Positions 9,554 to 38,895 of a stretch of 64,000 bases of DNA are shown piece after piece; within the stretch, counting starts at the first letter, position 1; every line of letters begins with the position of its first letter. A program made the position numbers and the translations under genes. The notes below the pieces were generated by a model. The model had not been told where the DNA came from. It did not search any database and saw nothing but the letters and a program-made list of their open reading frames with translations. Source of the DNA: a virus; the IMG/VR virus record IMGVR_UViG_3300012009_000091, positions 103,070 to 167,069 of that record; one strand, given 5' to 3'.

Positions 9554-11539
9554 ATGAAAGCTGAGGAGTACTTCGGGCCAGAAGGTCTTCTGTCAACAGC
9601 GTTCGATGGATACGAATACAGGGAGGGCCAAGAAGCGATGGCGCAGATGGTCTTGGACGCTATAAAAGACCGTCACCGCGTCATCATAGAAGCGGGAACA
9701 GGGACAGGGAAGACTCTGGCCTATTTGATTCCCGCCGCCGTGACGGGCTGTCGAACGGTTGTTTCGACCGCCACGAAAGCCCTCCAAGGTCAATTGATCA
9801 ACAGCGATGTTCCCAAAGTGCATGCCGCAGGGCTACCCCTCTCGGCTGCTGTTCTGAAGGGACGAGACAACTACGTCTGTAGACGTAAGCTTCGCCAGTG
9901 TCGAAAGAACCCGCCCATTTGGGCTAAGAAAGATGAGCGCTTGTGGAAGAAATTACAAGTGTGGGTACGTGACGACAAAGGATTTCGAGATCGTGCGACA
10001 TTCCCGTATCTAGGAGACGACGCATTGGAGTGGGCTGACGTAACTGTCAGTAGTCAGAACTGTTGGCGAAATACGTGTCCGCTTAAAGACGGGTGCTATG
10101 CCGACCAGGCCAGAGGTCGAGCGGCCTCGGCTCAAGTTCTGATCGTCAACCACCATCTTTTCTTTGCAGACTTGATGTTAAAGTCCGAAGGTGCGCCTGG
10201 GCTTCTTCACAATGTGGATTTCGTTGTGTTGGACGAAGCGCACAAGATGGAATCGGCAGCGACGGGCTTTTTTTCGATTGCTGTTTCCCATGCTCGAGTG
10301 AAGCGGCTAATCCGCTCTATCAATTCTCTCGTCCACACTTACCCTCCTGGTTTTAGAACCAAAATCCAGGAGATGCAAAAGGCTTCCGAAACCTTCTTCG
10401 AGCTGCTCTCAAAGGAAGTTCAAGATCGAGTTGGGAGTGGGTCAATTGAGTGGAGTCGAATTTGTGACGATCGCCTTGCTTCACTCAGTCAAGAGGGGCT
10501 AGAGCGAGTGGAAGAGGTGCATGTCCGGCTTCGAGATTTGAACAATTCGGACATTAAACAGTTCGATGACCCGCCGTTGACAGCGCAAAAGGTGTCATCT
10601 ATTTTGCGCACAAAGACGCAGCGTTTGATGGATGAGTGGGAGGACGTGCTCTGCGATGCGACGGACAATTACGTACAATACGTTCAAGGCCGTCAGTATG
10701 GAGCACGTCTGGTTTCCAGCCCAATCTGTCCGGGCGATGTTCTAGAGCAAGAGATGCTTCCGATCTATCCGGCCATGGCGTTTGTCAGCGCTACGTTGGT
10801 AGTAGGAGAGTCGTTCGATTATTTTCGTTCTCGGGCGGGACTGAGAGACTCGAGCTCTGCTCAAGAATATTGGGTTGAAAGTCCGTTCAACTACGAGAAA
10901 CAAGCAGCTACCTACGTGCCTACTGCCTTTCCGGTTCCTAGTAGCCGGGATTTCATTCCGAATGCCGCGGATGTCATTGAAGAGCTAGTCAAGATTACAG
11001 GGGGTCGGGCATTTGTTCTGTGTACCAGCTATCGGAATATGCACGGGCTGCATAAGGCGCTATCCAACCGGCTCCCTTATCAGATCTTGGTACAGGGAAA
11101 AATGGCGAAAGAAACGATTGTCAAGAAGTTCCAAGAGGAGCCGTCTGTTCTCTTTGCCACGGCCAGTTTTTGGGAAGGAGTCGATATTTCTGGTGAGGCG
11201 TTAAGTTTGGTTGTCATCGACAAGATCCCTTTTGCACCACACACCGATCCTCTCGTCAATGCTCGTGTCGAGCTTCTCAAGGCTGAAGGGAGAAATGCAT
11301 TCATGGAGTACCAAGTCCCGACGGCCGCACTGACTTTGAAGCAGGGATTTGGCCGTTTGATTCGTCGAAGAACGGATCGTGGCATAGTCGCTTTTCTCGA
11401 CACTCGTCTGTTGACCGGACATTACGCGGCACAGCTATGGGATGCGCTCCCTCTCTGTTCCGATTGTGAATCAATCGAACAGTTACAGGGGTGGTACCAC
11501 GATCCTGACAAGTGGATCGACAAGCTGTTGAAGATGTAA
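9554..11539 (+). CDS. dinG: DinG/YoaA-family ATP-dependent DNA helicase
   Basis: REGQ Q-motif, EAGTGTGKT, Fe-S Cys, DEAH, SATL, FWEGVD, KQGFGRLIR. Confidence 0.95.
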   Translation: MKAEEYFGPEGLLSTAFDGYEYREGQEAMAQMVLDAIKDRHRVIIEAGTGTGKTLAYLIPAAVTGCRTVVSTATKALQGQLINSDVPKVHAAGLPLSAAVLKGRDNYVCRRKLRQCRKNPPIWAKKDERLWKKLQVWVRDDKGFRDRATFPYLGDDALEWADVTVSSQNCWRNTCPLKDGCYADQARGRAASAQVLIVNHHLFFADLMLKSEGAPGLLHNVDFVVLDEAHKMESAATGFFSIAVSHARVKRLIRSINSLVHTYPPGFRTKIQEMQKASETFFELLSKEVQDRVGSGSIEWSRICDDRLASLSQEGLERVEEVHVRLRDLNNSDIKQFDDPPLTAQKVSSILRTKTQRLMDEWEDVLCDATDNYVQYVQGRQYGARLVSSPICPGDVLEQEMLPIYPAMAFVSATLVVGESFDYFRSRAGLRDSSSAQEYWVESPFNYEKQAATYVPTAFPVPSSRDFIPNAADVIEELVKITGGRAFVLCTSYRNMHGLHKALSNRLPYQILVQGKMAKETIVKKFQEEPSVLFATASFWEGVDISGEALSLVVIDKIPFAPHTDPLVNARVELLKAEGRNAFMEYQVPTAALTLKQGFGRLIRRRTDRGIVAFLDTRLLTGHYAAQLWDALPLCSDCESIEQLQGWYHDPDKWIDKLLKM

Positions 11540-11647
11540 TGTCAAGCCCCCAAAAGTGGGGACGTGTACTTGGTTCGGGATGTGCACACATCTGAATCAT
11601 TACGTTACAAAGAACTATGTGTTTTAAGGGACACATGTAAAAGGAGG

Positions 11648-24706: not shown

Positions 24707-25741
24707 ATGATCACGCGGCTGGACCTCACGGACTTTACCCTCTTCGCCCGGGCGGACTTCCAGTTCGGTGCCCTCAACGTAATCCACGGAGCCAACAGCA
24801 GCGGCAAGACCCATTTGCTCAAGCTGGCCTATTGCGTGACCTCCGCGATTACGCCACGTCCGAACGAACCCGTGTCCGGTCAACCAACCAAGACCAGGCT
24901 CGAACCCGCGCTCGGAGCCAAGCTCGCCGCGGTATTTCGGCCCGACCAGGGCAAAGTCGGGCGCCTCACCCGACGGGTGCAGAGAACGAAGAGGTCCGAG
25001 GTTCGGGTCACGCTCAAGGATGCAGGGAACCTCAACTTCTCATTCAGCACCCGAAGTGACCGTGCCGTCGCCACGTCGGAGGTTCCGACGGCTTGGCTCG
25101 ATCAGGCGCCGATCTACTTCCCTACACGTGAGCTTCTGTCTGTGTACCCGGGATTCGTCAGCCTGTATGAGACTCAGGCTGTCCCGTTCGACGAGACGTG
25201 GCGGGATACCTGCCTGCTCCTGGGGGCACCCATCGCGAGAGGTCCGAAGAAGCGTGAGATCGCCGAGCTTCTTCAGCCTCTGGAAGAGGCTATCGGATGC
25301 AGAGCGGTGCTCGAAGGAGACCGCTTCTTTCTGCAGATGCAGCAGCCCAACGCCAAGGTCGAGGCGGATCTCGTCGCTGAGGGGTACCGGAAGCTCTCGA
25401 TGGTGGCCAGGCTCATCGCGAACGGCAGTCTCGATGACAGAGGCTACCTGTTCTGGGACGAGCCGGCGGCGAATCTGAACGCTCGCCTCGTGCGAAAGCT
25501 GGCGCCACTGTTCATCGATCTCGCCGATGGAGGTGTGCAGGTGTTTGTCGCGACGCACAGCCGCTTTCTGATGCGAGAAATCGAGATCGAACGCGCATCT
25601 CGGAAGAAAAAGGCCAGCGTGCGCTACATAGGGCTGCATCCATCGTCTGGTGGGGTCGAAGTCGCCCAGGGCCAAAGTGTGGGCGACTCAGGAGACATCA
25701 CCGGGAACGGGATCGACACCCGGGGCCTAAAGTGCTATTAA
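24707..25741 (+). CDS. AAA_15/AAA_21-type (ABC/SMC-like) ATPase
   Basis: GANSSGKT Walker A, AEGYRK signature, FWDEP Walker B, VATHS H-loop; GC-rich. Confidence 0.85.
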   Translation: MITRLDLTDFTLFARADFQFGALNVIHGANSSGKTHLLKLAYCVTSAITPRPNEPVSGQPTKTRLEPALGAKLAAVFRPDQGKVGRLTRRVQRTKRSEVRVTLKDAGNLNFSFSTRSDRAVATSEVPTAWLDQAPIYFPTRELLSVYPGFVSLYETQAVPFDETWRDTCLLLGAPIARGPKKREIAELLQPLEEAIGCRAVLEGDRFFLQMQQPNAKVEADLVAEGYRKLSMVARLIANGSLDDRGYLFWDEPAANLNARLVRKLAPLFIDLADGGVQVFVATHSRFLMREIEIERASRKKKASVRYIGLHPSSGGVEVAQGQSVGDSGDITGNGIDTRGLKCY

Positions 25742-25753
25742 CAATTGAGTCGT

Positions 25754-25804
25754 GATGGGGAGTCCGTGGGATGTTCCACGGACTCCCCACTATCCATTCT
25801 TTTT
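25754..25804 (+). terminator. intrinsic terminator
   Basis: TGGGGAGTCCGTGG/CCACGGACTCCCCA stem, T-run downstream. Confidence 0.65.
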
Positions 25805-25830
25805 ATGTGTGGGAAAGGAGGTTATGTATT

Positions 25831-26412
25831 ATGCAGAAGTCGATCACGCTGCTGTCTGTTTTCTTGTCTCTGTCTTTGTTTATGCTGTCCAGTGCGTCGG
25901 CCGAAGGCGACAGTGAGCCCGGTGACGGTAATCGGACTCTAGTCGAGGAGTGTACTGCGCTGTGCGGTGAGTACGAGGCGGCAACGATTGACATCGATGC
26001 CGCTGGTAATCTGGTGGCCTGTACCTGTGACGTCACTGACCCGAGTAGGGTGTGTTGCACTCAAGGTACTTCTGTGCCGTGTGGTGATGCCTGTATTCCA
26101 GAAGGCAGAACCTGTAGCCATGTTGAAGATGGACGAGCCAGTTACTGTGATATCGAGATCTCGGGGCCTAATGTCGAGTATGCTGCCGAATGCGCTGTGC
26201 CCTGTTCTCCGTACACAGTTGGGACCTTGAAGTTGGGGACTGACGGCGCGCTAGTGGCTTGTGGGTGTCATGTTAGTTCTTTGGCCCCGGTTTGTTGTAC
26301 GCCGGGGACGTCGCGTCCTTGTGGCGACGCCTGTATCTCGCCAGACCATAATTGTCAGCGTCCCACCGGCAGGGCGATGTTCTGCGATCCCGACACAGAA
26401 CAAGAAGAATAG
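25831..26412 (+). CDS. secreted Cys-rich protein with two internal repeats
   Basis: signal peptide ending SASA-EG; 2x C..C...G.LVAC.C...VCCT.GTS.PCGDACI....C. Confidence 0.75.
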   Translation: MQKSITLLSVFLSLSLFMLSSASAEGDSEPGDGNRTLVEECTALCGEYEAATIDIDAAGNLVACTCDVTDPSRVCCTQGTSVPCGDACIPEGRTCSHVEDGRASYCDIEISGPNVEYAAECAVPCSPYTVGTLKLGTDGALVACGCHVSSLAPVCCTPGTSRPCGDACISPDHNCQRPTGRAMFCDPDTEQEE

Positions 26413-28178: not shown

Positions 28179-28414
28179 AGCGGCTTTTACAGGAGTCGCT
28201 GGCGAAGATCAACACATTAGAAAAGCAGATCAACAATCTCATTCAGGCGTACACACAAGTGATGCTGCATGGAGGGGCGGATCCAGACCAGTTGATCGAC
28301 GATCTTTATTTTTTACTGACCTATGAAGTGCCGGGAGAGCCGTCTCCGATGGTTCGGGAAACAATTCAGGCCATCGTCCGAGCAATACAAGAAATACAAC
28401 AGGAGGACCATTGA
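28154..28414 (+). CDS. hypothetical protein
   Basis: RBS GGAG; coupled to the ligase gene. Confidence 0.6.
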   Translation: MSHKIEQVKRLLQESLAKINTLEKQINNLIQAYTQVMLHGGADPDQLIDDLYFLLTYEVPGEPSPMVRETIQAIVRAIQEIQQEDH

Positions 28415-30321
28415 TGGATGTCGAACAATTGGTGCAAAAGATTCAGTACCATCGAGTGAAGTATTGGGCAGGCGAACCCGTGATTTCCGATACAGAGTTC
28501 GATCGGCTCGTCGAACAGCTACGGGAACTCGATCCCAACAATGTCATCCTGAATGAGATCGGGGTGGGGTTCATCGAAGGCCGACGGAAAGTGACTCATG
28601 AAATGCCTATGCTGTCTCTCCAGAAGTGCTACACAGTTGAGGACCTGTTGCGGTGGCGTAACAAGCTGTCGGATCCTGATTTGATTGTTAGCCCGAAGAT
28701 TGACGGTCTAGCTGTGGCGTTGCGTTACCGCAGTGGGACGTATGTTCAAGCCATCACTCGTGGAGATGGGCTAGTTGGGGATGACATCACGGAAAATATG
28801 CGGTTCGTGTCTGGCGTCGCTATGCATATTGATGAAGTTCAGGATATCGAAATCCGGGGCGAAGTGTTTATTCCTCGATCTGTTTTCGAGAACCTGTTTG
28901 CAGAGGAGTATAGCAACCCGCGAAATCTCGCGGTAGGTGCATTGAAACGCGACAACGCCAAAGAGACAGCGAAATTCTACTTGGTTTTTCAGGCCTATGA
29001 TGTTCTGGGAAAAGAGTTTTCTTTCGAGACGACCAAGTTCGACTGGCTGGCTTCAGTCAATTGCGTACCAGTTCCGGTAGAACTCGTTACGTCAGAAAAG
29101 GAGATCCGCGCTTTCCTTTTGACAACGCCTGATCAGTACCTTTATGAGATAGATGGCTTTGTGTTCAAAATTGCGAAGTGCTCTCTTCAGAAAGAGCTCG
29201 GCGCTACACGACATCATCCTCGTGGATCAATGGCGTACAAGCTTCAGGGGGATACCGGTGTGTCGTCAGTCAAGGCAATAGAGTGGCAAGTCGGCCGTAC
29301 AGGGGTGCTGACACCGGTCGCTCAGATCAAGACGATTACACTCTCTGGTGCAGTAATCAACCGAGTTAGTTTGCACAACACCAGTATCATGCGAGAGCTG
29401 GACAGCGATCTCCGGCTCTTGAATGCTTCGGTTCAAATTACGCGGCGCGGCGGGGTGATTCCCTATATCGAAAAGATGTTGACCCCTGGGGAGCCTCTTC
29501 AGGTCCCTCTGTATTGTCCGGAATGCAACGGCATCACATTCTTCGCAGACAGGGACCTGCTGTATGCAGAACACGCAATCGATTGTGCTCCGATTCTCTT
29601 GGGGACTCTGCAGCACTTCCTCAAGGTTCTTCGAGTCAAAGGATTCGGTCCTGCGATTTTGGAATCGTTGATTGAAGGCGAGTTCATTCAAACACCTGCA
29701 GACCTCTTGGGATTGACGGAAGACGACTTGCTATCCGTTGATCGGATAGGCGGAAAGCAGGCGAAGAAGCTTCTCGCTCGACTTCAAGAGGTGCGGCAGG
29801 TCCCTTTGTCAACTTTCCTCGTAGCACTAGGGATTCCCAATCTTGGGATTCAGCTCGCTTCGACATTGGCTGACCGCTACCCAACTTTGGGGGATTTGGC
29901 CAAAGCTAAAGAAGAAGATCTCCTTCAATTGCCTGGGGTAGGTGAGGTGGGATGCCGGATCGTCCAAGAGTGGCTTCCAGCTAAGAAGTACCTTATTCAG
30001 GACTTACTTAGACATATCCAAATCGAAGAAAATGTAAAGGACGAGGAGCCGATTGGGTCACTTCCCCTTGCAAACAAGTCTTTCTTGTTCACCGGTAAGC
30101 TACAGTACGCTACTCGATCTAGCGCTGAAGAGATTATCAAAAATCTCGGTGGGTCAATTGTATCTGCTGTGACTCGCAATTTAGACTATCTTGTAGTCGG
30201 AGAAACGTCTGGAGAAAGTGCCAAGCTCAAGCGAGCTCGAATGGTTCAGAGTGCTAAAGGAGCTCTTGAAATCATTGATGAGGATCAGTTTGCGCTTCTC
30301 GTTGGGAAGCGCAACCTGTAG
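28414..30321 (+). CDS. ligA: NAD-dependent DNA ligase
   Basis: PMLSLQK, KIDG, TRGDG, EIRGEV, NPRN, WQVGRTG, HhH repeats, C-terminal BRCT. Confidence 0.97.
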   Translation: MDVEQLVQKIQYHRVKYWAGEPVISDTEFDRLVEQLRELDPNNVILNEIGVGFIEGRRKVTHEMPMLSLQKCYTVEDLLRWRNKLSDPDLIVSPKIDGLAVALRYRSGTYVQAITRGDGLVGDDITENMRFVSGVAMHIDEVQDIEIRGEVFIPRSVFENLFAEEYSNPRNLAVGALKRDNAKETAKFYLVFQAYDVLGKEFSFETTKFDWLASVNCVPVPVELVTSEKEIRAFLLTTPDQYLYEIDGFVFKIAKCSLQKELGATRHHPRGSMAYKLQGDTGVSSVKAIEWQVGRTGVLTPVAQIKTITLSGAVINRVSLHNTSIMRELDSDLRLLNASVQITRRGGVIPYIEKMLTPGEPLQVPLYCPECNGITFFADRDLLYAEHAIDCAPILLGTLQHFLKVLRVKGFGPAILESLIEGEFIQTPADLLGLTEDDLLSVDRIGGKQAKKLLARLQEVRQVPLSTFLVALGIPNLGIQLASTLADRYPTLGDLAKAKEEDLLQLPGVGEVGCRIVQEWLPAKKYLIQDLLRHIQIEENVKDEEPIGSLPLANKSFLFTGKLQYATRSSAEEIIKNLGGSIVSAVTRNLDYLVVGETSGESAKLKRARMVQSAKGALEIIDEDQFALLVGKRNL

Positions 30322-30357: not shown

Positions 30358-30455
30358 GCTAAAAGAAGAGTACAAATAGAATTGACTCTTCTTTTACGAA
30401 ATAGAACGTCTCAATCCCCATCTGAACGGGGCACGTAGACTAGCCTTTCTCGTTA
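30358..30455 (-). ncRNA. candidate ~100-nt small RNA
   Basis: GTATAAG motif at 30460-30466 (minus); terminator AAAAGAAGAGT/ACTCTTCTTTT+AG; no ORF between them. Confidence 0.45.
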
Positions 30456-30611
30456 CTTACTTATACCTATTTCCAACGCAAAATGCACCCGCATTCTTGA
30501 CGATCACTTTGTCTCTAGAGGACAATCAAATTGCGGTGAGTACGTTCTGGTCCTCCAGTACTCGTCGTCAGGAGCCCTTGGCCCAGGGCTCCTAACTTCC
30601 TTGCATTGATG

Positions 30612-30646
30612 TTAAAAAGGAAGGGGCCTGACGATCCAGGCCCCTT
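30612..30646 (-). terminator. intrinsic terminator of the island operon
   Basis: AAGGGGCCTG/CAGGCCCCTT stem then CCTTTTT on minus. Confidence 0.7.
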
Positions 30647-30692
30647 GGGTTTGAGTGCAGAAGATGACTAGCCTTCTGCACTCGAGACGACC

Positions 30693-31091
30693 TTAGAGCC
30701 ACCAGTCGCCGCGGTATACGCGGATTTCCTGGCGCTCTTCGGCCTCTTCCTCTTCCTCTGTGTCGGTCCACTTTGAGGCCGTCCAGTACTGGTTCGGTTT
30801 CCACCGAACCTGGACGGTCTCGTGAACCTCTTCTTCCTCTTCCTCTTCCACCACCCACCAAGGTTGGTGGCGGTCGAGGACCCGAACCCAGTCCTGGATG
30901 CTTCGGGCCTCGAGCTCACGCGCCACGCGCGTAACGTGCTCGAGTTCCGCAGTCTGGACCAGACCTATCTGATGTAGGTCTTGCGCGATGCAGGACGCGT
31001 CGCGCAACAAGTCCATTCCGTGCATCCAGGCCCGGATACGCCGGGCGCTGATGACCTTGACCTCCCGTCGGTCGGTTACCGTGATATGCAC
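30693..31091 (-). CDS. hypothetical protein with poly-Glu tracts
   Basis: 132-aa ORF overlapping the end of the upstream gene. Confidence 0.6.
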   Translation of the reverse strand: MHITVTDRREVKVISARRIRAWMHGMDLLRDASCIAQDLHQIGLVQTAELEHVTRVARELEARSIQDWVRVLDRHQPWWVVEEEEEEEVHETVQVRWKPNQYWTASKWTDTEEEEEAEERQEIRVYRGDWWL

Positions 31092-32797
31092 AGTAACTCC
31101 CCCAACGAAGGGGTCAGCCCCTCAAGGCGCTTGGGCATCATCTCGTCGTTGAGATGTGCTCGACGCTCATACGCGTCGTCGAAGATCGTTACGGGCACCC
31201 CGTAACGATCTTCTAGCTCCCCCTGATGAGCTGAGTCATCCCAGGGCCGGGTAACCACGAAGAGACGGACGACTACCATCTCCTCGCTTCTCCAGCCCTC
31301 GGGCCCGGACTCTGTTCGCCCGTATCCCCGCACCTCTCCGATCACTCGTGCGTGGTCGGAGAGGCAATTAATGCCCCACTCCGCGTGAAGCCCGCCCACG
31401 TTTCGCACGCGTGCGGACTCCGGGAAGTGGTGGGCGACCATTACCGGCCGCTCCCAAGCAGTTCCCTGCTGGGGGCTCAGTAATATATCGTCAACCAGAT
31501 TCCACACACGCCAACCGACAAGGGACCCGTCTTCCGGGTCCTCTTTTGGGCGTGCAGCACGGATCTCTCTTTCCCTGACGTCCATGGACGTCAGCAGAGA
31601 ATACCATGCTTTATGGATCTGTGGGCGCAGGGAGCGGATCAGATGCCCTCGCTGGGCCCGGACCAACTTGGCGCGCCGCGCCCTTGAACTTCTGGCCCCC
31701 AGCAGAGGGTCTGATCGGAAGGCACCCGACTCAAGGCGATCTCGCCTCGTCCGCTGCGCGTTCATGGTTTCAGCCATGAACGCCACCAAGTCCTTTACGG
31801 TCTTGATGGCGGCCGTGTGCGTCCTTGGGCTGTTTACCGCCCAGGCCACCCACGATCGAGGCGAGGCATACGCCTCGGCTGCCTCGTGGCATATCTTCTC
31901 CAGGCTTACGGGACCGGCGTCCAGCGTCCAAACGAGGCCGCTTTGCGACCACCATTTGGGGTGAAGGCCGCACTGTTTTATGGTGCGAACCTCTTCGACC
32001 CCGATTCGTAGTCTGATTTTGCCCTTGTCATAGGCAACTTTTACGTCGCCATTGACTATTGCAGTCATCAACTTATCGTCGGGGTCCACCCACCGGAACC
32101 ATTTCAGCCACTTTCGGGCGGGCACGAGTGCCTGCTCTAACTGTGGCCGAATCGGCTGGAGACGCACCCACTCTGCGTGGAGACGCTCCAGCCGTGCCCA
32201 GAGACTCTCATCGTTCGGGCATACCAATTCGTCCCAGACGGCGCGGAGGAATGCGCCGCTCATCCGGGACAGCCGCTTCAACCACACGGTCTTAGTGTCG
32301 TGTGGGAGCGGCATAGGCTCACGCGCCCGGAGTTTCCTGCTCAGGCGCAGGATCGCCCGCACGCGCGTGCGGTTTCCGGGCCAGATGGGGCGTTCTGGCA
32401 GCATCGAGGCTAACGCCTTCGGATACTGCTCTGCCTTGATGCCAAGGCAGAACGCCCTGATCGCGGCTGAAGGGTCACAAGTGTACGGTGACCCCAACCG
32501 CGATGAACGCTGTTGAGTGGCGAGCCAATAGGCCACCCACTCATCCCACTTTTGGATGAGTCGGTTTGGCGGCAGCAGATTCCATCCTGCTTTCGCCAAA
32601 GCCCAGTCCACGCGATCCGCCGACCGGATTATCCCCAAACCTCGGAGCACGATCCGACCGTAGTCGGATGCGCTCTTGATTTTTCGGGCGGGCTTTGGGG
32701 AATAGCGCGCTCGAAAGGCCTCAGCGACAGTCCAGTCGCCGACTAGCCAATCCGCCTCTTCCTGGCGGAGCCAGGCGGCGGATGGAGTTGCACTCAT
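31076..32797 (-). CDS. hypothetical protein; C-terminal GWR...GLHA...VIGEV.G.G...GWR domain
   Basis: 573 aa; RBS AAGGAGGAG; GC-rich. Confidence 0.75.
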   Translation of the reverse strand: MSATPSAAWLRQEEADWLVGDWTVAEAFRARYSPKPARKIKSASDYGRIVLRGLGIIRSADRVDWALAKAGWNLLPPNRLIQKWDEWVAYWLATQQRSSRLGSPYTCDPSAAIRAFCLGIKAEQYPKALASMLPERPIWPGNRTRVRAILRLSRKLRAREPMPLPHDTKTVWLKRLSRMSGAFLRAVWDELVCPNDESLWARLERLHAEWVRLQPIRPQLEQALVPARKWLKWFRWVDPDDKLMTAIVNGDVKVAYDKGKIRLRIGVEEVRTIKQCGLHPKWWSQSGLVWTLDAGPVSLEKICHEAAEAYASPRSWVAWAVNSPRTHTAAIKTVKDLVAFMAETMNAQRTRRDRLESGAFRSDPLLGARSSRARRAKLVRAQRGHLIRSLRPQIHKAWYSLLTSMDVREREIRAARPKEDPEDGSLVGWRVWNLVDDILLSPQQGTAWERPVMVAHHFPESARVRNVGGLHAEWGINCLSDHARVIGEVRGYGRTESGPEGWRSEEMVVVRLFVVTRPWDDSAHQGELEDRYGVPVTIFDDAYERRAHLNDEMMPKRLEGLTPSLGELLCISR

Positions 32798-32889
32798 TTG
32801 TGCTCCTCCTTGGGCGCTTTTGCGCCCAGTTTTTGTCTTCGTTTGATACGTATCCCGTTTATACCAAACGTATCCCTCGTCTCACTACC

Positions 32890-33600
32890 GGGGCTTTGAG
32901 TGTGCCTCCACACTCCCACGTGAAACTCGATTGCGCGAGGTAGGACCATCCTATCCTCTGCAGGTCAGCTTCGTGGCCGATAGCTTCCGAGTATGCTGAT
33001 GATTGACCTGATTCACAGTGTCCAATTGTGAATCGCCATCAGCCGAAATGGGCGTGGCCAGCCCTCATGCAGTAAATTAGTGATCCGGCTTTATTGGGCT
33101 CCGGATTACGTTCTGCATATTGTTTCGTCACTGTGGTGCCACTTTCCACAGCTGTTTCTAGGGCAAGCTTCATCACTAGCTTGCAAGGATGCCTGACAGT
33201 GGACTACTGTCAGACTTTCAGAAGGCTTCTCATCTCATTACTAGAAGCAGGCTAGACTCCGTTCATGTAGACAAGTCGCATCTGTCCTTCTGATAGATCC
33301 GGTGATGTCGACTCTATTCAGAAGGCTCTACACTTCTATAAAGACGGGGGGTTAGTCATCCCCCCGGATGTTGCATCTGGGATGCCTCCCATAAACCTTG
33401 TAGGAAGTCCTACAAAGCTTACGGGAGGCACGCCCCCTTTCGGGGGCGCCTCCTTCTTCCTCATGCCCCAAAGGGGCATCTTGTGCAGCGGTGTCAGAAG
33501 CGCCTTACTGCTTCTGGCCTACTGCTTTGGGACAGCGACCTTTGTTCCGCCTCCCTGGGTGCGTAACCACCCGTCCCCCGTTTTAACGGGGGAGTTTGCC
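32890..33600. ncRNA. long hairpin-dense non-coding tract A (candidate large structured RNA)
   Basis: about 18 consecutive stems, no credible ORF; 22-bp stem at 33383-33430 has 3 G-U pairs on minus; GAAA loop on minus at 33431-33448. Confidence 0.6.
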
Positions 33601-33622
33601 TGTGTCGCGTCATCATCGAGCT

Positions 33623-33907
33623 CTACGCGGACGCCACAGGGGACCAATCCCCTGCGGCGAACAGGACCCCAAAAGGGATCCCGGGAGCCCAAATGAGGAG
33701 GCTGCCATCCGTAAGGATGGCGAGCTCCTCCTCGCCGGGCTCCTCTGCCGGCAATCTGCCGGCAGAGTAGAGCATCTCGATGATCAGCTGAGACGCGTAC
33801 TGATAACTCAGCCGCATCTCATCGCTGAACGCGACCTGTGAGAACGCCACTGGGTGGCACTCCCCACAGGTCGCGATTTCAACGATCGCGATCTCAAGAT
33901 TTTTCAT
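33623..33907 (-). CDS. hypothetical protein
   Basis: RBS GGAGG before MKNLEI; CGEC motif. Confidence 0.55.
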   Translation of the reverse strand: MKNLEIAIVEIATCGECHPVAFSQVAFSDEMRLSYQYASQLIIEMLYSAGRLPAEEPGEEELAILTDGSLLIWAPGIPFGVLFAAGDWSPVASA

Positions 33908-34007
33908 GTTCCTCCCGAACATGAGTTTCGTCCCTCACGCGGAACGGCGGATCGGGCGTATTATAGGGCCGCCCAATCTTCTACCCTCTGCGGCATAGCC
34001 GCATATA

Positions 34008-34103
34008 TGCAAGCCCTGGGAATCGAACCCAGGCGACGTTTGTCGCGTCCTTGGCTTGCGGTATGGGATATTGAGTCCCATCAATGCAACTGGGCAGGTC
34101 TGC
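34008..34103 (-). tRNA. tRNA-like element (non-canonical or pseudo-tRNA)
   Basis: T-arm CTGGG-TTCGATT-CCCAG and 7-bp acceptor GCAAGCC/GGCTTGC-A; no normal D-arm; upstream TGGGA-CTCAATA-TCCCA hairpin (CAA). Confidence 0.45.
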
Positions 34104-34423
34104 ATATTCCTTCTACTAGGCCTTGGGAGTGGGGTGGCGCTTTTCACAGCCTCTCGTGACCATATGGTCAACCGCCTGCTCCGTACCGTTCGATTACTCA
34201 ACACGACACGCTACTTTCGTGTTGAGGGCAACTTTTTCTGACGGGGTATTGCCAAGGTCCCCCATTACGCACCCACACCAAGTTACCCCCATTTTCGCTC
34301 AGGATTTCTCTGAACTTAGGGCCCTGGGCCTTTTGGCCTATACTTGTCTTCAGCTGTTAGGGATAGCTGTTAACCAGGGTTGATGGGATGGTTATACTTG
34401 CCGCCGAATATAGTCGGCGGCGG

Positions 34424-35587
34424 CTATGTTGGGTCGACGGCGATGACCGTCCCCAGCTTCATAGCCGGGGAATGGGTCATCGCCACCGTCGCCCCCACCC
34501 CTGGCTGGTAACAGGCCAGCCACGGCGTATTGTGGTACGCCATGGCTAGACTGATCGTCAGCCAATTGGGGCCTCGTCCACTTAGGACGATCCCCATTCC
34601 CGGCTGCACAGCCGGGGGGGTGACGTCGTTCAGATCGTCGACGGAGAATACTCCGCCGACGATCTCAAACGTGACGACGGCGAACTCGTCCCTCTCCTCA
34701 ACGGAGAAGGACAAGTTCGCCCCAGAGCCTTCAGATGAAGGCTCTTGACACCCGATTGGGACTGTGCCCAATCGGGGGTCGTTCACGCTTGCGGCTGCCG
34801 GGTGGCAGCCGTGAACGACGGACAGACCCAACCACGCGGGGCTGGGTCCGTCAAAAACGACGTGGTCGTCGGCCCCGAAGCCCCACCCACGGAGGGTGGT
34901 GTCGATTTTGGGAAGGTCTGTGCCTTCCCAATTGATCGACGAAACCACCCTGCCGTTGGGCAGGGTCTTCGTTATCGGAGCTTTTCCCAGCAGCTCTGAG
35001 AGCTGCTGGGTGGTGATGGTGGTGTCCATCGCCGTCTCCAGTGTCCCGGCGCTGAAATCGCACCGGGACAAGACCCGCTGGGCCAGTCTTTGCATTACTG
35101 GCCCAGCGTTGACCGTTCCCCGGTGAAGCCCGACAACCGTCCCCTCTAGAGGGTGGGTGTCGGGGGAGACGGTCTCCTCTCCGGCTAGCCGGCTTTTTAG
35201 GAGGGCTATACACCGTAGCCCGAGGTCTTCCCCAAAACGCCGCCACTCGTCCATAGCTTCGTCTTTTGACGAAAGTACTACGAACGCGTCACAACGCTTG
35301 AAAATTTCCTCGTTCTGTGGTGTAATTCGTCCCCCCACATCGACCAGTGTCAGAGGTAGGCCGACATTCTCCAATCCTGTCAGGACATAGTCCATGAATG
35401 AATTGGAAAAGTCGCCCTTACGTCTGATACGCTGGACGAGTTCTTGGGGGGCCGAATTGGCCCACGTACCTTCCCCGTCCGGACAAGCCCGGAACAAGAA
35501 GGTACCTTCCCGTGGAAGCAATTGCTTCAGGGAAGCGAAAAACACCGACTTTCCGGAATGAGGAGGACCGCAGATGATTACTTTCAT
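34424..35587 (-). CDS. csx3: P-loop NTPase fused to two Csx3/Crn3 (CRISPR ring nuclease-like) domains
   Basis: GPPHSGKS, ACPDGEG.W, LVDVGG; Csx3 motifs HGCHPAA...DPRLG and GIVLSGRGPNWL...YH..PWLACY.P..G..V..THS. Confidence 0.8.
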   Translation of the reverse strand: MKVIICGPPHSGKSVFFASLKQLLPREGTFLFRACPDGEGTWANSAPQELVQRIRRKGDFSNSFMDYVLTGLENVGLPLTLVDVGGRITPQNEEIFKRCDAFVVLSSKDEAMDEWRRFGEDLGLRCIALLKSRLAGEETVSPDTHPLEGTVVGLHRGTVNAGPVMQRLAQRVLSRCDFSAGTLETAMDTTITTQQLSELLGKAPITKTLPNGRVVSSINWEGTDLPKIDTTLRGWGFGADDHVVFDGPSPAWLGLSVVHGCHPAAASVNDPRLGTVPIGCQEPSSEGSGANLSFSVEERDEFAVVTFEIVGGVFSVDDLNDVTPPAVQPGMGIVLSGRGPNWLTISLAMAYHNTPWLACYQPGVGATVAMTHSPAMKLGTVIAVDPT

Positions 35588-35589
35588 CC

Positions 35590-36485
35590 TACTCCTCTCA
35601 CCAGAGAGTCATTTGCGCTCTACTCTTTCTGCTTGCACCCTACTGCAAGTGGAAATTTCAAGCTCCTGGGAAGACCTCCCAGTCGGGCAATTGACGAAAA
35701 TTGTTTTTACGTGACGCTCGTCAATTTGGTGCGTCACTATAAATACGCGGTTCTCGCCGCGTAAATAAAAATGGTTTAGCATCTGGTCAGGTAGGAAAGA
35801 CCAGGGATCATCAGGAAGATGATCTCCGCAAAGGACTTGCGGACCGTGCCCCGAGGATCGGGGTCTTTACAGAACTCATCCAGCATGTTGCATGCTGGGC
35901 AACCTACAAGGCGGACCGGGTTCTGATTCCAGTCCGACAGGAGTGCATTACGCTGCACAAACGACCACCATAACCTGGCAGTGGAGTCCGGAAATTCGCT
36001 TCCGGAACGGGTGGATCTTACCGAGTAACCACCATCTCGGCCCATGTTTAATGCTATTGGGGTGCAGGGACCTCTACGCGAGGTTGGCGGTGTAGATTTA
36101 GCTCTACACGAACTGATACTTGGTATTTTAGTCTGTAGTACCTTCAGACTATCCAGCTATGGCACTGGATGGCCAACAATCTAAGCCTGATTGCCCAAGG
36201 CAGCTCTTACCCAGAACTTGGGGAGTTCATACCCAGAACTCATAGGGCCTCCCATTGTAAAGGCGGGGTTGGTGCGCCTGCTCGTATAACTCCCTGAGCA
36301 AGGGGTTGGCACTTGGTAATCTGCCTTAGTGCCAGAGGCAGTTCATAACCCTGAACGGGGGCCTCCCATTGTAAAGGCGGGGTTGGTGCGCCTGGGGAAT
36401 ATTCGTGTGCCGAAGGGTGCGCGGTTGGGATCGGTGTTCTCCTTTTGGAGCCGATGTGCGCAAGTGGCACGTGGTAAGTTCCCTT
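35590..36485. ncRNA. long hairpin-dense non-coding tract C (candidate large structured RNA or leader)
   Basis: more than 20 short stems, pseudoknot, 36-nt repeat pair; GTATAAG promoter at 36491 on minus. Confidence 0.6.
36245..36394. repeat. perfect 36-nt direct repeat x2
   Basis: GGGCCTCCCATTGTAAAGGCGGGGTTGGTGCGCCTG at 36245-36280 and 36359-36394. Confidence 0.95.
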
Positions 36486-36490
36486 AAATA

Positions 36491-36497
36491 CTTATAC
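36491..36497 (-). promoter_or_regulatory. GTATAAG phage promoter motif (one of at least 17 copies)
   Basis: recurrent motif, typically 22-37 nt upstream of start codons. Confidence 0.7.
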
Positions 36498-36517
36498 TTA
36501 TCAGAGTCTTTATGGAT

Positions 36518-36572
36518 ACTAAAAGTTCAGGGTGGAGGTTTACAGAAGTTCCCAGATGCCACCCTGAACTTT
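36518..36572 (-). terminator. intrinsic terminator
   Basis: AAAGTTCAGGGTGG/CCACCCTGAACTTT followed by TTAG on minus. Confidence 0.7.
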
Positions 36573-36574
36573 GA

Positions 36575-36781
36575 CTAACGGCGGTTTTTACGCCGCCGGC
36601 GTCGTCGTCGGGAATTGTTTTCGGAGTGCGCATCCTCCCGACTCAAACGCGCACCCTCTTCTCGAAGTGCTTGGCGCTCCTCTGCCCAGAGGTCGCGCGC
36701 CGGTCCCCGCCGGACCGCGTCGATCACGGCAGGGGCGGCGTGCTTCGCCAGGGCGAGAAGCGCCTTCTTCTTTAGAGACAT
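36575..36781 (-). CDS. small basic protein with Arg tail
   Basis: GTATAAG at 36811, RBS AAGGAGG, own terminator. Confidence 0.7.
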   Translation of the reverse strand: MSLKKKALLALAKHAAPAVIDAVRRGPARDLWAEERQALREEGARLSREDAHSENNSRRRRRRRKNRR

Positions 36782-36811
36782 TTAACCTCCTTGGGTTGTC
36801 TCGTTAGATAC

Positions 36812-37519
36812 TTATACGTTTTGCCAACGAACGCCGGCAACTTGATGATCGTTTACATGTTGTGCCTTGAGTTCACATTGTACGCCGTAGAACGTTGCAG
36901 GACATTGATGGATAGAGGGGTCAAAACACGCCCGGCAGCGAGGCTCATAGATGTCCTCGGCACCCGGAAGAATCCGTTCGGAGGAGATTATCGTGCGGTG
37001 ATTGTAGATCGCTTGTTTTCCGCAGACACAGCACTGTGCGTACTTCATGAAGATTGTGTCTGCTACAGCCATCAATCGTAGAATAGGAAAGAAAGGCTGT
37101 CCTATGTAATCGGACATAAGTCCGACAACATAGACGTTGATACCAAGATGGTTCACTAGTGACATACAGACGTTCACTAGATCTTTGGGGAACATGTGCG
37201 CTTCTTCAATAGCGATGGTATTCACGGAAATGGCTCGTTCCATCTCCATGACGCATTTTGGTATTTGGAGTGGGTGTTCGAGTGGGATAGCTTTCCGAAC
37301 ACGTCCGTTGTGTGTTCGGATGACGTCTTGTCCGTCTCTAACATCCTTCTGGGGCTTGAAGATGGGTATGGCTCTATCTTCGAGGCTGTCGAACAGTAAT
37401 TCGGTTTTCCCTCCCCACATGGTGCCTGTGATTACGGTAAGTATTCCTGGAGTCCGCGTAGACGGTTCATCCATGTTGGATGAATCATTGGACTTTCCAT
37501 TTCCTCGCTCTCGGTCCAT
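36812..37519 (-). CDS. tdk: thymidine kinase (type II)
   Basis: GTMWGGKT, IEEAHMF, GL.SDY.GQPF, CCVCG, YEPRCRAC. Confidence 0.92.
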   Translation of the reverse strand: MDRERGNGKSNDSSNMDEPSTRTPGILTVITGTMWGGKTELLFDSLEDRAIPIFKPQKDVRDGQDVIRTHNGRVRKAIPLEHPLQIPKCVMEMERAISVNTIAIEEAHMFPKDLVNVCMSLVNHLGINVYVVGLMSDYIGQPFFPILRLMAVADTIFMKYAQCCVCGKQAIYNHRTIISSERILPGAEDIYEPRCRACFDPSIHQCPATFYGVQCELKAQHVNDHQVAGVRWQNV

Positions 37520-37826: not shown

Positions 37827-38615
37827 TTAGTTTTGGAGCGAAGTGGCGAGATTTGGTGGCCCGTTCTGATTCATCAGTTTCTCGATAGCTCCCTCCACAT
37901 ATGCATTTACAGCGCGCGGAAGGAGACCCCCGTCAATGACCTCCACATTCCCTCCTTGATTCTGGAGAGTGGTTGCGAGCTGTCTGTACACGTCCTCAAC
38001 TTCTGTGAGGAACTCGATGTTCTCGTACTTCTCGAACTTCTCTCCCCCTCGTGCATCAATTCGATCCATCGCTACTTTCGGTTCCATCGCCAAGAAGATG
38101 GTGAGATCGGGGAAGGGCGCAAATTGATTGAGTTGGTAAATCCAGTCAATGTTCAACCCGGCAGCTGCATCATAGGCTAAACCGCTCATCACGTAGCGGT
38201 CACAGACCACAGACTTTCCGCTGGTCAAGATCGGGTTGATCTCAGTGAGATAATGATGCAGTCGGTCTGCAGCGAAGAGGAGTGCAAAGATTCGGTTGTC
38301 GGGAGCTTCTTCTTCTCCCATGAGCACCTGCTGAATTATCGACCCTACAGGTCCGTCGGTCGGTTCGGATGTGAAGTGTGTTTCATGGTATCGATCTGAC
38401 ATGAACGCCGATGCATGAACTGCTTGAGTGGTCGTACCAGCCCCGTCGATCCCTTCGACGGCAATCAACTTTCCCCTCGGTGGGGCGTTCGGATCTTTCT
38501 TTTTCTCGATCCTTAACTGGCCAGAGGATTCCATTTTGAGAATGACAGTTCCCTCGGGAGTATCAATTTCGACAAACGGTGTCTCAGTGTCGATTCCTTC
38601 GCCTCTAATTTTCAT
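37827..38615 (-). CDS. tmk: thymidylate kinase
   Basis: EGIDGAGTTTQ, EP, LLFAADR..H, CDRY..S..AY, PDLTIFL; RBS AGGAGG before ATG 38615. Confidence 0.92.
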   Translation of the reverse strand: MKIRGEGIDTETPFVEIDTPEGTVILKMESSGQLRIEKKKDPNAPPRGKLIAVEGIDGAGTTTQAVHASAFMSDRYHETHFTSEPTDGPVGSIIQQVLMGEEEAPDNRIFALLFAADRLHHYLTEINPILTSGKSVVCDRYVMSGLAYDAAAGLNIDWIYQLNQFAPFPDLTIFLAMEPKVAMDRIDARGGEKFEKYENIEFLTEVEDVYRQLATTLQNQGGNVEVIDGGLLPRAVNAYVEGAIEKLMNQNGPPNLATSLQN

Positions 38616-38625
38616 GTAGGTCCTC

Positions 38626-38895
38626 CTAGAATGGAAGTAAAGAGATGTAGTCCATCTCATCGCATGTATGGATCGGCAGATCCTCATAGCCCAGAGGACA
38701 ATAACCGATCCGAAGATAGACAAACTCCCCGAGAATGTTCCAGATCAACATAGCCCAGTGACGGTACGTCTCGGCTGTGTTGCTAATCCATAATCGGTCG
38801 TCTGTCTGGTCGACGCAATAGCCTGCTTCTCGAAGTCCGTGCGCTACGGTGTCTAGACGATCTGGAGCACACGGTAGCTCAACGAGAACGTTCAT
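38626..38895 (-). CDS. hypothetical protein
   Basis: ATGA-coupled 89-aa ORF. Confidence 0.55.
   Translation of the reverse strand: MNVLVELPCAPDRLDTVAHGLREAGYCVDQTDDRLWISNTAETYRHWAMLIWNILGEFVYLRIGYCPLGYEDLPIHTCDEMDYISLLPF

Follow-up and report, generated by a model that had tools for sequence, protein, structure and literature searches.

A complete NTPase-Csx3-Csx3 gene in a variable slot of a phage genome

The 64,000-nt stretch of phage DNA analysed here (the window) carries on its minus strand a complete gene for a 387-aa protein, in which an N-terminal P-loop NTPase domain is followed by two Csx3 units. The features of the locus are collected in Table 1. The original prediction, made from the sequence, was of a phage-encoded P-loop NTPase with tandem Csx3 domains, and all the motifs on which it relied are present in the ORF: GPPHSGKS (residues 7-14), ACPDGEGTW (34-42) and LVDVGG (81-86) in the NTPase domain, DGPSP (246-250), HGCH (259-262) and DPRLG (270-274) in unit 1, and SGRGPNW (336-342), YH (351-352), YQPG (360-363) and THS (371-373) in unit 2. 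The public gene call for ORF 34424-35587 is 323 aa long, with the P-loop cut off. Since at least 868 homologues have the same length as the 387-aa protein and can be aligned from residue 1, and since the Shine-Dalgarno-like GAGAGGAG precedes it, we prefer the longer start, with its ATG at 35587.

Table 1 Features of the locus (positions in the window).
Feature	Residues	Position	Strand	Basis or remark
Accessory island holding the gene		30448..36829	minus	GC-rich (55-61%), about 6 kb
Complete gene, NTPase-Csx3-Csx3 protein	387 aa	34424..35587	minus	ORF and translation; stop codon 34424-34426
Csx3 unit 2, canonical	290-387	34427..34720	minus	phmmer, Foldseek, structural match, column counts
Csx3 unit 1, divergent	186-289	34721..35032	minus	profile, fold, motif register
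N-terminal P-loop NTPase domain	1-180	35048..35587	minus	AF2 and structural matches
Shine-Dalgarno-like GAGAGGAG		35592..35599	minus	4 nt upstream of the ATG of the gene; sequence read
GTATAAG motif, candidate phage promoter		36491..36497	minus	~900 nt upstream of the gene

The genome from which the window is taken is 167,069 bp long, with a DTR, and is 100% complete according to CheckV. Searches of the whole genome found no Cas10 palm, RAMP protein or CRISPR-like array, so that the absence of cas genes and arrays first noticed in the window extends to the entire phage, and the gene is not the regulator of a phage-borne type III system. It lies in an island flanked by two copies of a 31-nt promoter-like GTATAAG repeat (repeat D4); GTATAAG itself occurs 19 times in the window against 3 copies expected. 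This GC-rich, variable slot is situated between the ligase and the TK/TMK (thymidine kinase, thymidylate kinase) genes, and in a related phage the same slot holds different cargo (PcfJ). A defence-like HEC-02 ATPase is encoded ~9 kb from the gene.

Neither an operon partner nor flanking sequence common to the phage island and the cellular loci was found. The 573-aa downstream ORF (31076-32797) was rejected as a conserved partner, having no match in Pfam, PHROG or PADLOC and being dissimilar to the similarly sized neighbours at loci L004, L006 and L088; in the Atlas it retrieved only itself, its structural model is poor, and it may be no more than a chance reading frame in structured RNA of high GC content. 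The best matches of the phage ligase, from Myxococcota or 'Deltaproteobacteria', hint at a host in these groups, but ~40% identity is too weak to name one.

Two diverged Csx3 units share one set of catalytic residues

The Csx3 assignment of the protein is far above chance. Pfam Cas_csx3 (PF09620) matched it in two stretches (E 2.6e-25, 88.5 bits against a cut-off of 21) and TIGR02579 scored 89.9 bits against 55.4, both above the curated cut-offs. Unit 2 has the fold of AfCsx3/Crn3 from A. fulgidus (AF1864; PDB 3WZG/3WZH/3WZI, 6VJG, 6YUD), which it matches with a phmmer E of 1.6e-15, a Foldseek TM of 0.89 and, against 3wzh, a Z of 16.3 and an rmsd of 1.2 Å over 96 aa at 38% identity. Unit 1, too, is a Csx3, though a divergent one: Pfam gives its stretch 23.6 bits, the best PDB matches of its profile are AfCsx3 chains (E 2.6e-5), AfCsx3 came top among 48,161 chains when its own AF2 model (pLDDT 90.5) was searched (Z 6.8, 25% identity), and hhalign relates the two units with 87% probability. 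For the whole protein, an AF2 pTM of 0.88 indicates a fixed inter-domain arrangement, and a homodimer prediction (two copies, alignment A1) scored 0.00, which weighs neither way.

The Csx3/Crn3 fold serves cells in destroying cyclic tetra-adenylate (cA4), the alarm signal of type III CRISPR. AfCsx3 is a stand-alone protein of ~110 aa, encoded beside type III genes, whose two identical chains pair symmetrically into a dimer with both half-sites complete. Both faces are needed, H60 and D69 being essential and the R71A and H80A variants strongly impaired (PMC7371418). The phage protein differs in having two diverged copies per chain, one of each catalytic element and a fused NTPase. By HMMER alignment to AfCsx3, unit 2 keeps S44/G45/R46 (S336/G337/R338), H60 (H352) and H80 (H372) and loses H57 (M349), D69 (Q361) and R71 (G363); unit 1, in which the equivalent positions follow from the register of the motifs and from aligning the unit-1 profile, keeps H57 (H259), H60 (H262), D69 (D270) and R71 (R272) and loses S44, R46 and H80. 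In our count over both units S44, R46, H57, H60, D69, R71 and H80 are represented once each and G45 twice, which bears out the complementary motif retention and single-chain pseudo-dimer proposed at the outset. Neither unit holds the complete catalytic and binding set that each protomer has in the symmetric AfCsx3 dimer, and of the two-fold symmetric cA4 contacts half are retained and half are gone.

Among 119 aligned family sequences the unit-1 HxxH is present in 116-117, the unit-2 SGR in 110-119 and H372 in 114, with the histidines 88-98% conserved across the family; such conservation speaks for a conserved, metal-dependent active site. The D/R pair (equivalents of D69/R71) is wholly missing in 89 of the 119. 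The phage protein belongs to a subclade with a unit-1 D-P-[RK] motif (SH-like support 100, FastTree), which comprises 32 tree rows, namely 30 of the 119 aligned sequences and two added locus proteins.

The N-terminal domain resembles SIMIBI NTPases

The conserved elements of the NTPase domain (AF2 pLDDT 92.5) are Walker A GPPHSGKS, an invariant D37-G38-E39, R55/K57, the Walker B/DxxG motif LVDVGG, N92, W115, S132 and L154/R156. Its top structural matches were MinD (1g3r, Z 13.5), ApbC (13.1), ParA (12.1) and dethiobiotin synthetase (11.9), with GPN-loop GTPases at Z about 10.5-10.9. The best 50 structural matches to residues 1-177 were mostly of the SIMIBI class (MinD, ParA, Mrp/ApbC, dethiobiotin synthetase, SRP, GPN-loop) and included no AAA+ protein names, and Pfam AAA_22 remained below threshold (E 0.018). 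Judged by its predicted structure, the "AAA" domain of AAA-Csx3 is probably a MinD/ParA-like SIMIBI NTPase rather than an AAA+ domain. A KTI12- or PNK-like kinase was rejected for this domain, as Pfam KTI12 reached only E 0.18 and the fold matches are MinD/ParA-like. SIMIBI proteins usually dimerise in a nucleotide-dependent manner.

The architecture is that of a cellular family mostly found without Cas10

The PADLOC model PDLC01059 (C3a67) matched the phage protein over its full length (226 bits, E 1.8e-67; residues 3-384 against model positions 7-379 of 382). The NTPase-tandem-Csx3 architecture is thus that of the catalogued C3a67 AAA-Csx3 family (example Caur_2269), which has the same order of NTPase and then Csx3, and not an invention of the phage. 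A large cellular family, with at least 868 relatives, has this architecture as its ancestral state, and the earlier idea that a phage had repurposed a host protein into a pseudo-dimer does not hold. The family was defined by Shah et al. in 2018 from six genes that adjoin type III-(A)/B cassettes (PMC6546367); the phage gene, in contrast, has no such cassette next to it and lies in a cas-free genome, and its nearest relatives come from genomes without Cas10. In the literature examined the domain is called AAA(+) and a tandem Csx3 pseudo-dimer goes unmentioned.

Another Csx3 fusion, Csx3-AAA (Shah cluster 35; Synechocystis Slr7080; PADLOC PDLC01045), has an NTPase homologous to that of the phage protein: PDLC01045 matched residues 1-171 with 186 bits, and the phage-family NTPase HMM scored 97-139 bits on Csx3-AAA proteins. 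These differ from the phage protein in their reverse order (Csx3 then NTPase), single Csx3, length of ~313 aa, linkage to Cas10 and ordinary RNA folding.

The two orders also differ in their association with CRISPR. Cas10 was present in 12 of 14 genomes with the Csx3-first single-domain fusion, several of the genes being adjacent, whereas only 3 of 60 genomes with NTPase-first genes, which come mostly from Patescibacteria and gut Clostridia, contained it. CD-NTases were found in 2 of 50 genomes with NTPase-first relatives, and the eight phage-clade neighbourhoods (seven cellular or metagenomic and that of the phage itself) held no cas genes within 10 kb or to the end of a shorter contig. Since most NTPase-first genomes are without Cas10 or CD-NTases, the cellular job of these proteins would seem to be something other than resetting endogenous type III signalling, and the description of the phage gene as a captured host off-switch is, with Cas10 so rare and the clade neighbourhoods cas-free, doubtful.

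The recurrent neighbours of NTPase-first genes are DEAH/HA2 helicases, TrmB regulators (12 loci), MYG1, HD_4, CYTH, and bpMoxR+VWA pairs (nine clustered loci and one further context), together with further paralogues of either the NTPase or the tandem-Csx3 module. Some relatives lie on mobile elements, among them a contig of 165 kb that resembles a phage and another, resembling a plasmid, that carries type IV CRISPR, ParB and PemK. No match to the gene was obtained with tblastn or megablast in 50,697 deposited phage genomes, and a scan of IMG/VR with the family alignment confirmed no further viral relative.

Hyper-structured RNA around NTPase-first genes

The sense RNA of the phage island gave folding z values of -5.0, -11.1, -13.4, -20.1 and -14.0, those inside the ORF being about -14 and -20. 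The sense strand folds more stably than the antisense strand, and in a sliding profile the island is hyper-structured relative to its flanks. The Cas10-less islands around the four cellular AAA-Csx3 homologues that were scanned are hyper-structured too, whereas RNA folding was ordinary at the eight CRISPR-linked Csx3-NTPase loci scanned. Hyper-structure in Cas10-less islands, and not at CRISPR-linked loci, points to a biology distinct from that of classical Crn3.

A single conserved RNA element within the gene was rejected, since RNAalifold on six phage-clade genes returned -94 kcal/mol with a covariation term of +10.5 and no conserved structure; the positions of the hairpins in the islands are likewise not conserved between homologues. 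Rfam gave no credible match at the gathering threshold or at E<=1, and ARAGORN found no tRNA.

A possible viral ring nuclease

The best explanation, to which we give a probability of about 0.45 and so slightly less than an even chance, is that the 387-aa protein is a single-chain, single-site oligoadenylate ring nuclease used by the phage in anti-defence. The two Csx3 domains of one chain would together replace the Csx3 homodimer. The 'D69 face', composed of the unit-2 S336-G337-R338 loop and unit-1 D270/R272, would bind cyclic tetra-adenylate or a close oligoadenylate, and a second molecule would close over the ligand head-to-tail with its histidine face (unit-1 H259/H262 and unit-2 H352/H372), as in AfCsx3, with Mn-dependent hydrolysis then opening the ring. 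Since a single D/R pair is left, there would probably be one phosphodiester cut per binding event, yielding linear A4 and not two A2 products. The NTPase may govern the pairing of the two molecules through nucleotide-dependent dimerisation, as is usual for SIMIBI proteins. Its role would then be that of a viral ring nuclease which depletes the cOA alarm raised by the type III CRISPR of the host.

That viruses counter CRISPR with ring nucleases is well established (PMC12409355, PMC13148439). As with AcrIII-1/DUF1874, the viral SAVED protein AcrIII-2 and phage Csx16/Csx20, what we describe is a homologue of a cOA-degrading enzyme, encoded by a virus without cas genes and with the same proposed role. 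Unlike AcrIII-1, AcrIII-2, Csx16 and Csx20, to whose folds its own is unrelated, it has a fused NTPase, and it would depend on metal and on the sandwiching of two molecules. No Crn3 turned up when 28,114 phage genomes were surveyed in 2025 (PMC12409355), so that in the literature examined a viral Crn3-type enzyme is unreported. In favour of the ring nuclease we count the Csx3 membership by profile and fold, the AfCsx3 residue types retained over the two units, the place of the protein in the D-P-[RK] subclade, the conserved histidines and SGR loop, the cas-free phage genome, the variable slot, the relatives on mobile elements, the type III cassettes beside which C3a67 was defined, and the precedent of other viral ring nucleases. 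Against it we count the Cas10-less relatives, the cas-free contexts of the clade, the loss of half of the cA4 contacts, the majority of the family without the D/R pair, and the RNA islands common to phage and cells.

Several of the points against the ring nuclease favour the main rival, an RNA- or nucleotide-directed phosphodiesterase/NTPase with no link to type III CRISPR, which we consider somewhat less probable. It would act on the 3' end of an RNA, on a linear oligonucleotide or on some other asymmetric nucleotide ligand, it would belong to an RNA-centred module with DEAH/HA2 helicases, MYG1 exonuclease, HD_4, CYTH and MoxR-VWA, and the phage would use it in its own RNA or nucleotide metabolism or in host takeover. 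Besides the 57 of 60 NTPase-first genomes without Cas10, as against the Csx3-first set, this reading can draw on the recurrent neighbours (TrmB and the paralogues included), the hyper-structured RNA islands of the phage and the four cellular loci, the asymmetry of a binding face that has a single SGR loop and a single D/R pair, and, in the phage, the surrounding ligase, thymidine kinase and thymidylate kinase genes. The earliest description of AfCsx3, as cited in PMC7371418, was moreover of a Mn-dependent deadenylating exoribonuclease. Yet the residues retained are precisely the cA4 residues of AfCsx3, to which unit 2 is 38% identical, and C3a67 was discovered next to type III cassettes (PMC6546367); the neighbour associations are also heterogeneous, and the phage island has no operon partner in common with the cellular loci.

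It is improbable, in our judgement, that the protein senses cOA or another signal and does not degrade it, with the Csx3 pseudo-dimer as the sensor of a regulated NTPase that provides the output, and with the phage using it as a switch, for example in programme timing or competitor exclusion. For the cluster 35/67 proteins Shah et al. suggested allosteric control of the ATPase by the Csx3 domain (PMC6546367). The NTPase motifs are as well conserved as the Csx3 motifs, the modelled inter-domain arrangement appears fixed, and the HEC-02 ATPase is not far off; but the histidine cluster and the D/R pair argue for catalysis in the Csx3 part, a lone SIMIBI NTPase has no obvious effector output, and no conserved partner effector adjoins the phage gene. 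The same residues make a non-catalytic sponge that sequesters cOA, put forward as a variant in the original prediction, less likely still. The intact unit-2 loop SGRGPNW and the loss of half of the catalytic set from each unit would suit a sponge, and a ligand could be caught between molecules stacked head-to-tail, in the way that inactive AfCsx3 H60A forms filaments with cA4 (PMC7371418). On the other hand each catalytic residue type is still there once, the histidines are conserved family-wide to the degree given above, and a sponge would have no need of a conserved NTPase.

Cleavage of cA4 would make the protein the first viral ring nuclease of the Crn3 type in the literature examined, and would give a first functional handle on the AAA-Csx3 family catalogued in 2018. 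A pseudo-dimer with one copy per catalytic element puts the two-face sandwich mechanism of Csx3 to a natural test, and predicts single-site ring opening and NTP-controlled pairing. The view of the family is redrawn as well: its 'AAA' domain is SIMIBI-like, its NTPase-first form is largely uncoupled from Cas10, and the islands scanned, unlike CRISPR-linked Csx3-NTPase loci, are hyper-structured in their RNA. This raises the question what ultrasmall bacteria without CRISPR, and a phage, gain from encoding such an enzyme on transcripts saturated with hairpins.

One speculative answer, which we regard as unlikely, is that NTPase-first AAA-Csx3 marks new 'hyper-structured RNA islands' that serve counter-defence or recovery in Cas10-less bacteria (Patescibacteria and others) and in this phage lineage. 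The hairpins could shield the mRNAs from single-strand-specific collateral RNases (HEPN, toxin or Cas13-like) or, alternatively, gate translation via the co-located DEAH/HA2 helicases, and the enzyme would be made to be expressed and to work during RNase-based immune shutdown. If true, modules for counter-defence and recovery would be seen to follow a new design principle. Each proposed island is a cassette of several kilobases, and its sense transcripts are full of perfect local hairpins even in the coding regions (z -5 to -20).

A phage-borne member of the AAA-Csx3 family

The csx3 gene, encoding an NTPase followed by two Csx3 units (unit 1, residues 186-289; unit 2, residues 290-387), carries every motif quoted in the original prediction, each at its stated position. 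Profile searches bore out the assignment, with Pfam Cas_csx3 matching in two stretches (E 2.6e-25) and TIGR02579, 'CRISPR-associated ring nuclease Crn3/Csx3', scoring 89.9 bits (cut-off 55.4). In public annotation the ORF is given an internal start, which yields 323 aa and leaves out the Walker A motif, so automated annotation would miss the NTPase. Since Walker A lies at residues 7-14 and the homologue alignments begin at residue 1, 387 aa is the correct length.

The protein also gave a full-length match to the PADLOC model PDLC01059, 'C3a67, AAA-Csx3' (226 bits; residues 3-384 align with positions 7-379 of the 382-position model). In Shah et al. 2018 this cluster 67 derives from six genes adjoining type III-(A)/B cassettes, exemplified by Caur_2269, and its domain order is the reverse of the cyanobacterial cluster 35 'Csx3-AAA' (PMC6546367). 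Later reviews refer to an ATPase 'of unknown function' (PMC12409355, PMC8284326, PMC9676260), and a survey covering 28,114 phage genomes lists AcrIII-1, Csx20 and Csx16 as present and Crn3 as not found (PMC12409355). We found no description of a tandem duplication, a SIMIBI fold or a viral copy in the AAA-Csx3 literature covered. The protein is a phage-borne, new member of a known, uncharacterised family.

The window is the final 64 kb of a 167,069-bp IMG/VR record with direct terminal repeats (an exact repeat of 55 bp), which CheckV puts at 100% completeness. The genes around csx3, a helicase among them, serve replication and nucleotide metabolism and are typical of phages, and the complete genome is without Cas10, RAMP protein or CRISPR-like array, extending to the whole record what had been seen in the window.

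Features of the phage window and of related loci (z, folding of sense RNA relative to dinucleotide shuffles)
Feature	Position	Strand	Remark
344-aa ABC/AAA_21-type ATPase	24707-25741	+	PADLOC HEC-02B 340 bits, HEC-02A 263 bits
213-aa ORF	25771-26412		adjoins the 344-aa ATPase
NAD ligase	28411-30321		phage-typical neighbour
Island with csx3 gene	30448-36829	-	bounded by two 31-nt GTATAAG-containing repeat copies
GTATAAG examples	36491-36497, 36811-36817, 30460-30466	-	three of 19 sites; at both island ends the motif lies inside the longer 31-nt repeat
573-aa ORF	31076-32797	-	
Island segment	32798-33499		z -13.4
Island segment	33500-34423		z -11.1
tRNA-like acceptor/T-arm minihelix	34008-34059	-	7-bp GCAAGCC/GGCUUGC stem around GGUUCGAUUCC T-loop motif
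csx3 gene (NTPase-Csx3-Csx3)	34424-35587	-	single ORF, 387 aa; z -14.0 (5' half), -20.1 (3' half)
Shine-Dalgarno sequence GAGAGGAG	35592-35599	-	precedes csx3 ORF
Island segment	35588-36490		z -5.0
36-nt perfect direct repeat	36245-36280, 36359-36394		114 nt apart
Thymidine kinase	36812-37519		phage-typical neighbour
Thymidylate kinase	37827-38723		phage-typical neighbour; control, z -0.36
Cargo of related phage contig L093	12000-15300	-	PcfJ and small ORFs; z -4 to -9
Structured islands of cellular relatives	L008:4900-16000; L006:2400-6600; L088:8500-13600; L013:9100-13000		z -4 to -13
164-nt element at cellular locus L008	about 9790-9953, 11430-11592		direct orientation, 96% identical

The two Csx3 units retain complementary parts of the AfCsx3 residue set

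An AlphaFold2 model built on an alignment of 119 homologues was confident (pLDDT 92.5, pTM 0.88). The comparison with A. fulgidus Csx3 (AfCsx3, a cA4 nuclease) matched unit 2 with Z 16.3 (rmsd 1.2 Å over 96 residues, 38% identity; Foldseek TM 0.89). Unit 1 is a Csx3 too, though divergent: its Pfam stretch reaches 23.6 bits, hhalign pairs it with unit 2 at 87% probability, its profile has AfCsx3 chains as best PDB matches (E 2.6e-5), and when modelled separately (pLDDT 90.5) its top match among 48,161 chains is AfCsx3 (Z 6.8), with SAVED and CARF proteins ranking behind. The structural matches to residues 1-177 are P-loop NTPases of the SIMIBI class (MinD, Z 13.5; ApbC, 13.1; ParA, 12.1; dethiobiotin synthetase, 11.9; GPN-loop and SRP GTPases, about 10.5), and since none of the 50 listed structural matches bears an AAA+ name, the literature label 'AAA ATPase' appears, on this model, to be loose.

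AfCsx3 sandwiches cA4 between two dimers, one presenting its 'D69 face' (S44, G45, R46, I49, D69 and R71) and the next its 'H60 face' (H57, H60 and H80); H60A and D69A are each dead and complement one another, and strong impairment is seen with R71A and H80A (PMC7371418). Mapping by HMMER alignment and column counts places G45, H57, H60, D69 and R71 at G247, H259, H262, D270 and R272 of unit 1, which has lost S44 (D246), R46 (P248) and H80; unit 2 has S44, G45, R46, H60 and H80 at S336, G337, R338, H352 and H372 and has lost H57 (M349), D69 (Q361) and R71 (G363). The complementary retention proposed originally is therefore correct, the pseudo-dimer holding one copy per element except G45, kept in both units. 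Among 119 family members the unit-1 HxxH is conserved in 116-117, the unit-2 S-G-R in 110-119, H352 in 105 and H372 in 114. The unit-1 D-P-[RK] occurs in only 30, the other 89 having S-P-D-G; the D-P-R sequences form one clade (SH-like support 100) that includes the phage protein, whose sister group contains a Bipolaricaulota protein (58% identity) and the L008 protein (55%).

Most NTPase-first relatives are found in genomes without Cas10

A protein search returned at least 868 proteins of similar length, and a GTDB scan with one genome per species gave 168 relatives; the best 80 loci were taken further. Patescibacteria (Saccharibacteria, Peregrinibacteria, Uhrbacteria and others) and gut Clostridia with small genomes account for most of these. 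Architectures were sorted by domain HMMs, and the Cas10 palm domain was sought in each whole genome. Among these best 80 of 168 loci, a Cas10-sized match was present in 3/60 genomes with the NTPase-first order and in 12/14 with the Csx3-first order (single domain, about 313 aa), counts that rest on metagenome-assembled genomes, where absence is not proof, though both architectures draw on the same kind of data. Several Csx3-first genes have an ORF of roughly 800 aa, taken to be Cas10, about 3.6 kb away. A CD-NTase (SMODS) was found in 2/50 NTPase-first carriers.

Within the phage protein's clade, no cas genes occurred within 10 kb, or up to a nearer contig end, in eight neighbourhoods (the phage and seven cellular or metagenomic ones, L008, L012, P0005, P0007, P0010, P0013 and P0075), nor on the short contigs of P0003, which at 61% identity is the closest relative. 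Repeated neighbours were TrmB-type regulators (12 loci), bpMoxR and VWA pairs (nine clustered loci and one further context), DEAH/HA2 helicases, MYG1 exonuclease, HD_4 and CYTH proteins, stand-alone NTPase paralogues and NTPase-less tandem-Csx3 paralogues. Some AAA-Csx3 copies are on mobile elements: one relative is on a plasmid-like contig with type IV CRISPR, ParB, PemK and SSB, and another on a 165-kb contig dense in small ORFs with PHROG matches.

The gene lies in a compositionally foreign, hyper-structured island

With a GC content of 59% in the csx3 gene and 61% in the 573-aa ORF, against 52% for the window, the island is compositionally foreign. The related phage contig L093 (ligase 56% identical) is syntenic with this phage and carries a different GC-rich cargo between ligase and ThyX/thymidylate kinase, so this slot is a variable accessory region.

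Sense RNA of the island, including the csx3 and 573-aa ORFs, folds far beyond dinucleotide shuffles. In a 300-nt sliding profile the signal spans about 30.4 kb to about 36.7 kb, and flanking genes are ordinary. The 1164-nt csx3 mRNA has an MFE of -712 kcal/mol (centroid -707), against -633 kcal/mol for the antisense; since the sense strand is likewise the more stable in most island windows, the pairing is suggested to be RNA-level, not DNA-level. No Rfam family matched in the island.

Around the AAA-Csx3 genes of four cellular relatives we found structured islands of roughly 4-11 kb with housekeeping flanks at baseline, and 400-nt windows in and around 14 homologous genes gave z mostly from -3 to -14. 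Eight CRISPR-linked Csx3-NTPase loci (L071, L073, L074, L077, L078, L081, L086 and L087) were at baseline, barring a stray window or two upstream of the gene, and also serve as a method control. Homologues shared no position-conserved hairpins: the RNAalifold consensus came to no more than -94 kcal/mol, and its covariation term was positive. The L093 cargo is also hyper-structured. The structure may protect against single-strand-specific RNases, place translation under helicase control, or be a trait of a kind of mobile cassette.

A predicted ring nuclease and its alternatives

The single most likely reading, with a probability of about 0.45, is that the phage protein is a ring nuclease directed against cOA signalling, because all AfCsx3 catalytic and contact residue types are kept, unit 2 is 38% identical to AfCsx3, a proven cA4 nuclease, and the gene sits in a phage accessory island. 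The protein's anatomy would then predict one scissile site per binding event, two molecules having to pair head-to-tail, and control of this pairing by the SIMIBI NTPase. A captured host off-switch, as the original prediction meant it, is not supported: the architecture is old and cellular, most NTPase-first carriers lack Cas10, and these Cas10-less carriers share the RNA property of the phage island, whereas the classical CRISPR-linked fusions do not. The original observation was accordingly confirmed and its interpretation partly supported.

Cas10-independence and the hyper-structured islands are the more surprising part of the finding. Of the alternatives to a ring nuclease, a distinct RNA or nucleotide function is the likeliest, though less likely than the main reading. 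A ligand-sensing NTPase switch is improbable, and a sponge is the least probable of these readings.

Other features of the phage region and related loci

GTATAAG is present 19 times in the window, where shuffles predict 3, and may serve the phage's own RNA polymerase as a promoter. The 573-aa ORF had no Pfam, PHROG or PADLOC match and no Atlas relatives, and its predicted structure was poor (pLDDT 0.46); it could be a gene particular to this lineage or else a spurious ORF within structured RNA. The 344-aa ATPase is defence-like and phage-carried; the adjoining 213-aa ORF had no match.

NTPase-less tandem-Csx3 paralogues (about 210-530 aa) lie near the NTPase-Csx3-Csx3 gene, usually 1.5-3 kb off, in Clostridia (L021, L024, L025, L027, L029, L030, L034, L066, L067, L070 and L075) and CPR (L016, L037 and L048), often with a LysR regulator, a 160-aa unknown protein and MYG1 exonuclease; at L045 a tandem Csx3 of 207 aa stands alone. 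Copies of the L008 164-nt element lie on both sides of its AAA-Csx3 gene and may mark a cassette boundary or act as a regulatory RNA; at L018 the flanking repeats are shorter. In the phage, the minihelix, where ARAGORN called no tRNA, is in the ORF-less tract downstream of the csx3 gene, and the 36-nt repeat is in the ORF-poor leader upstream.
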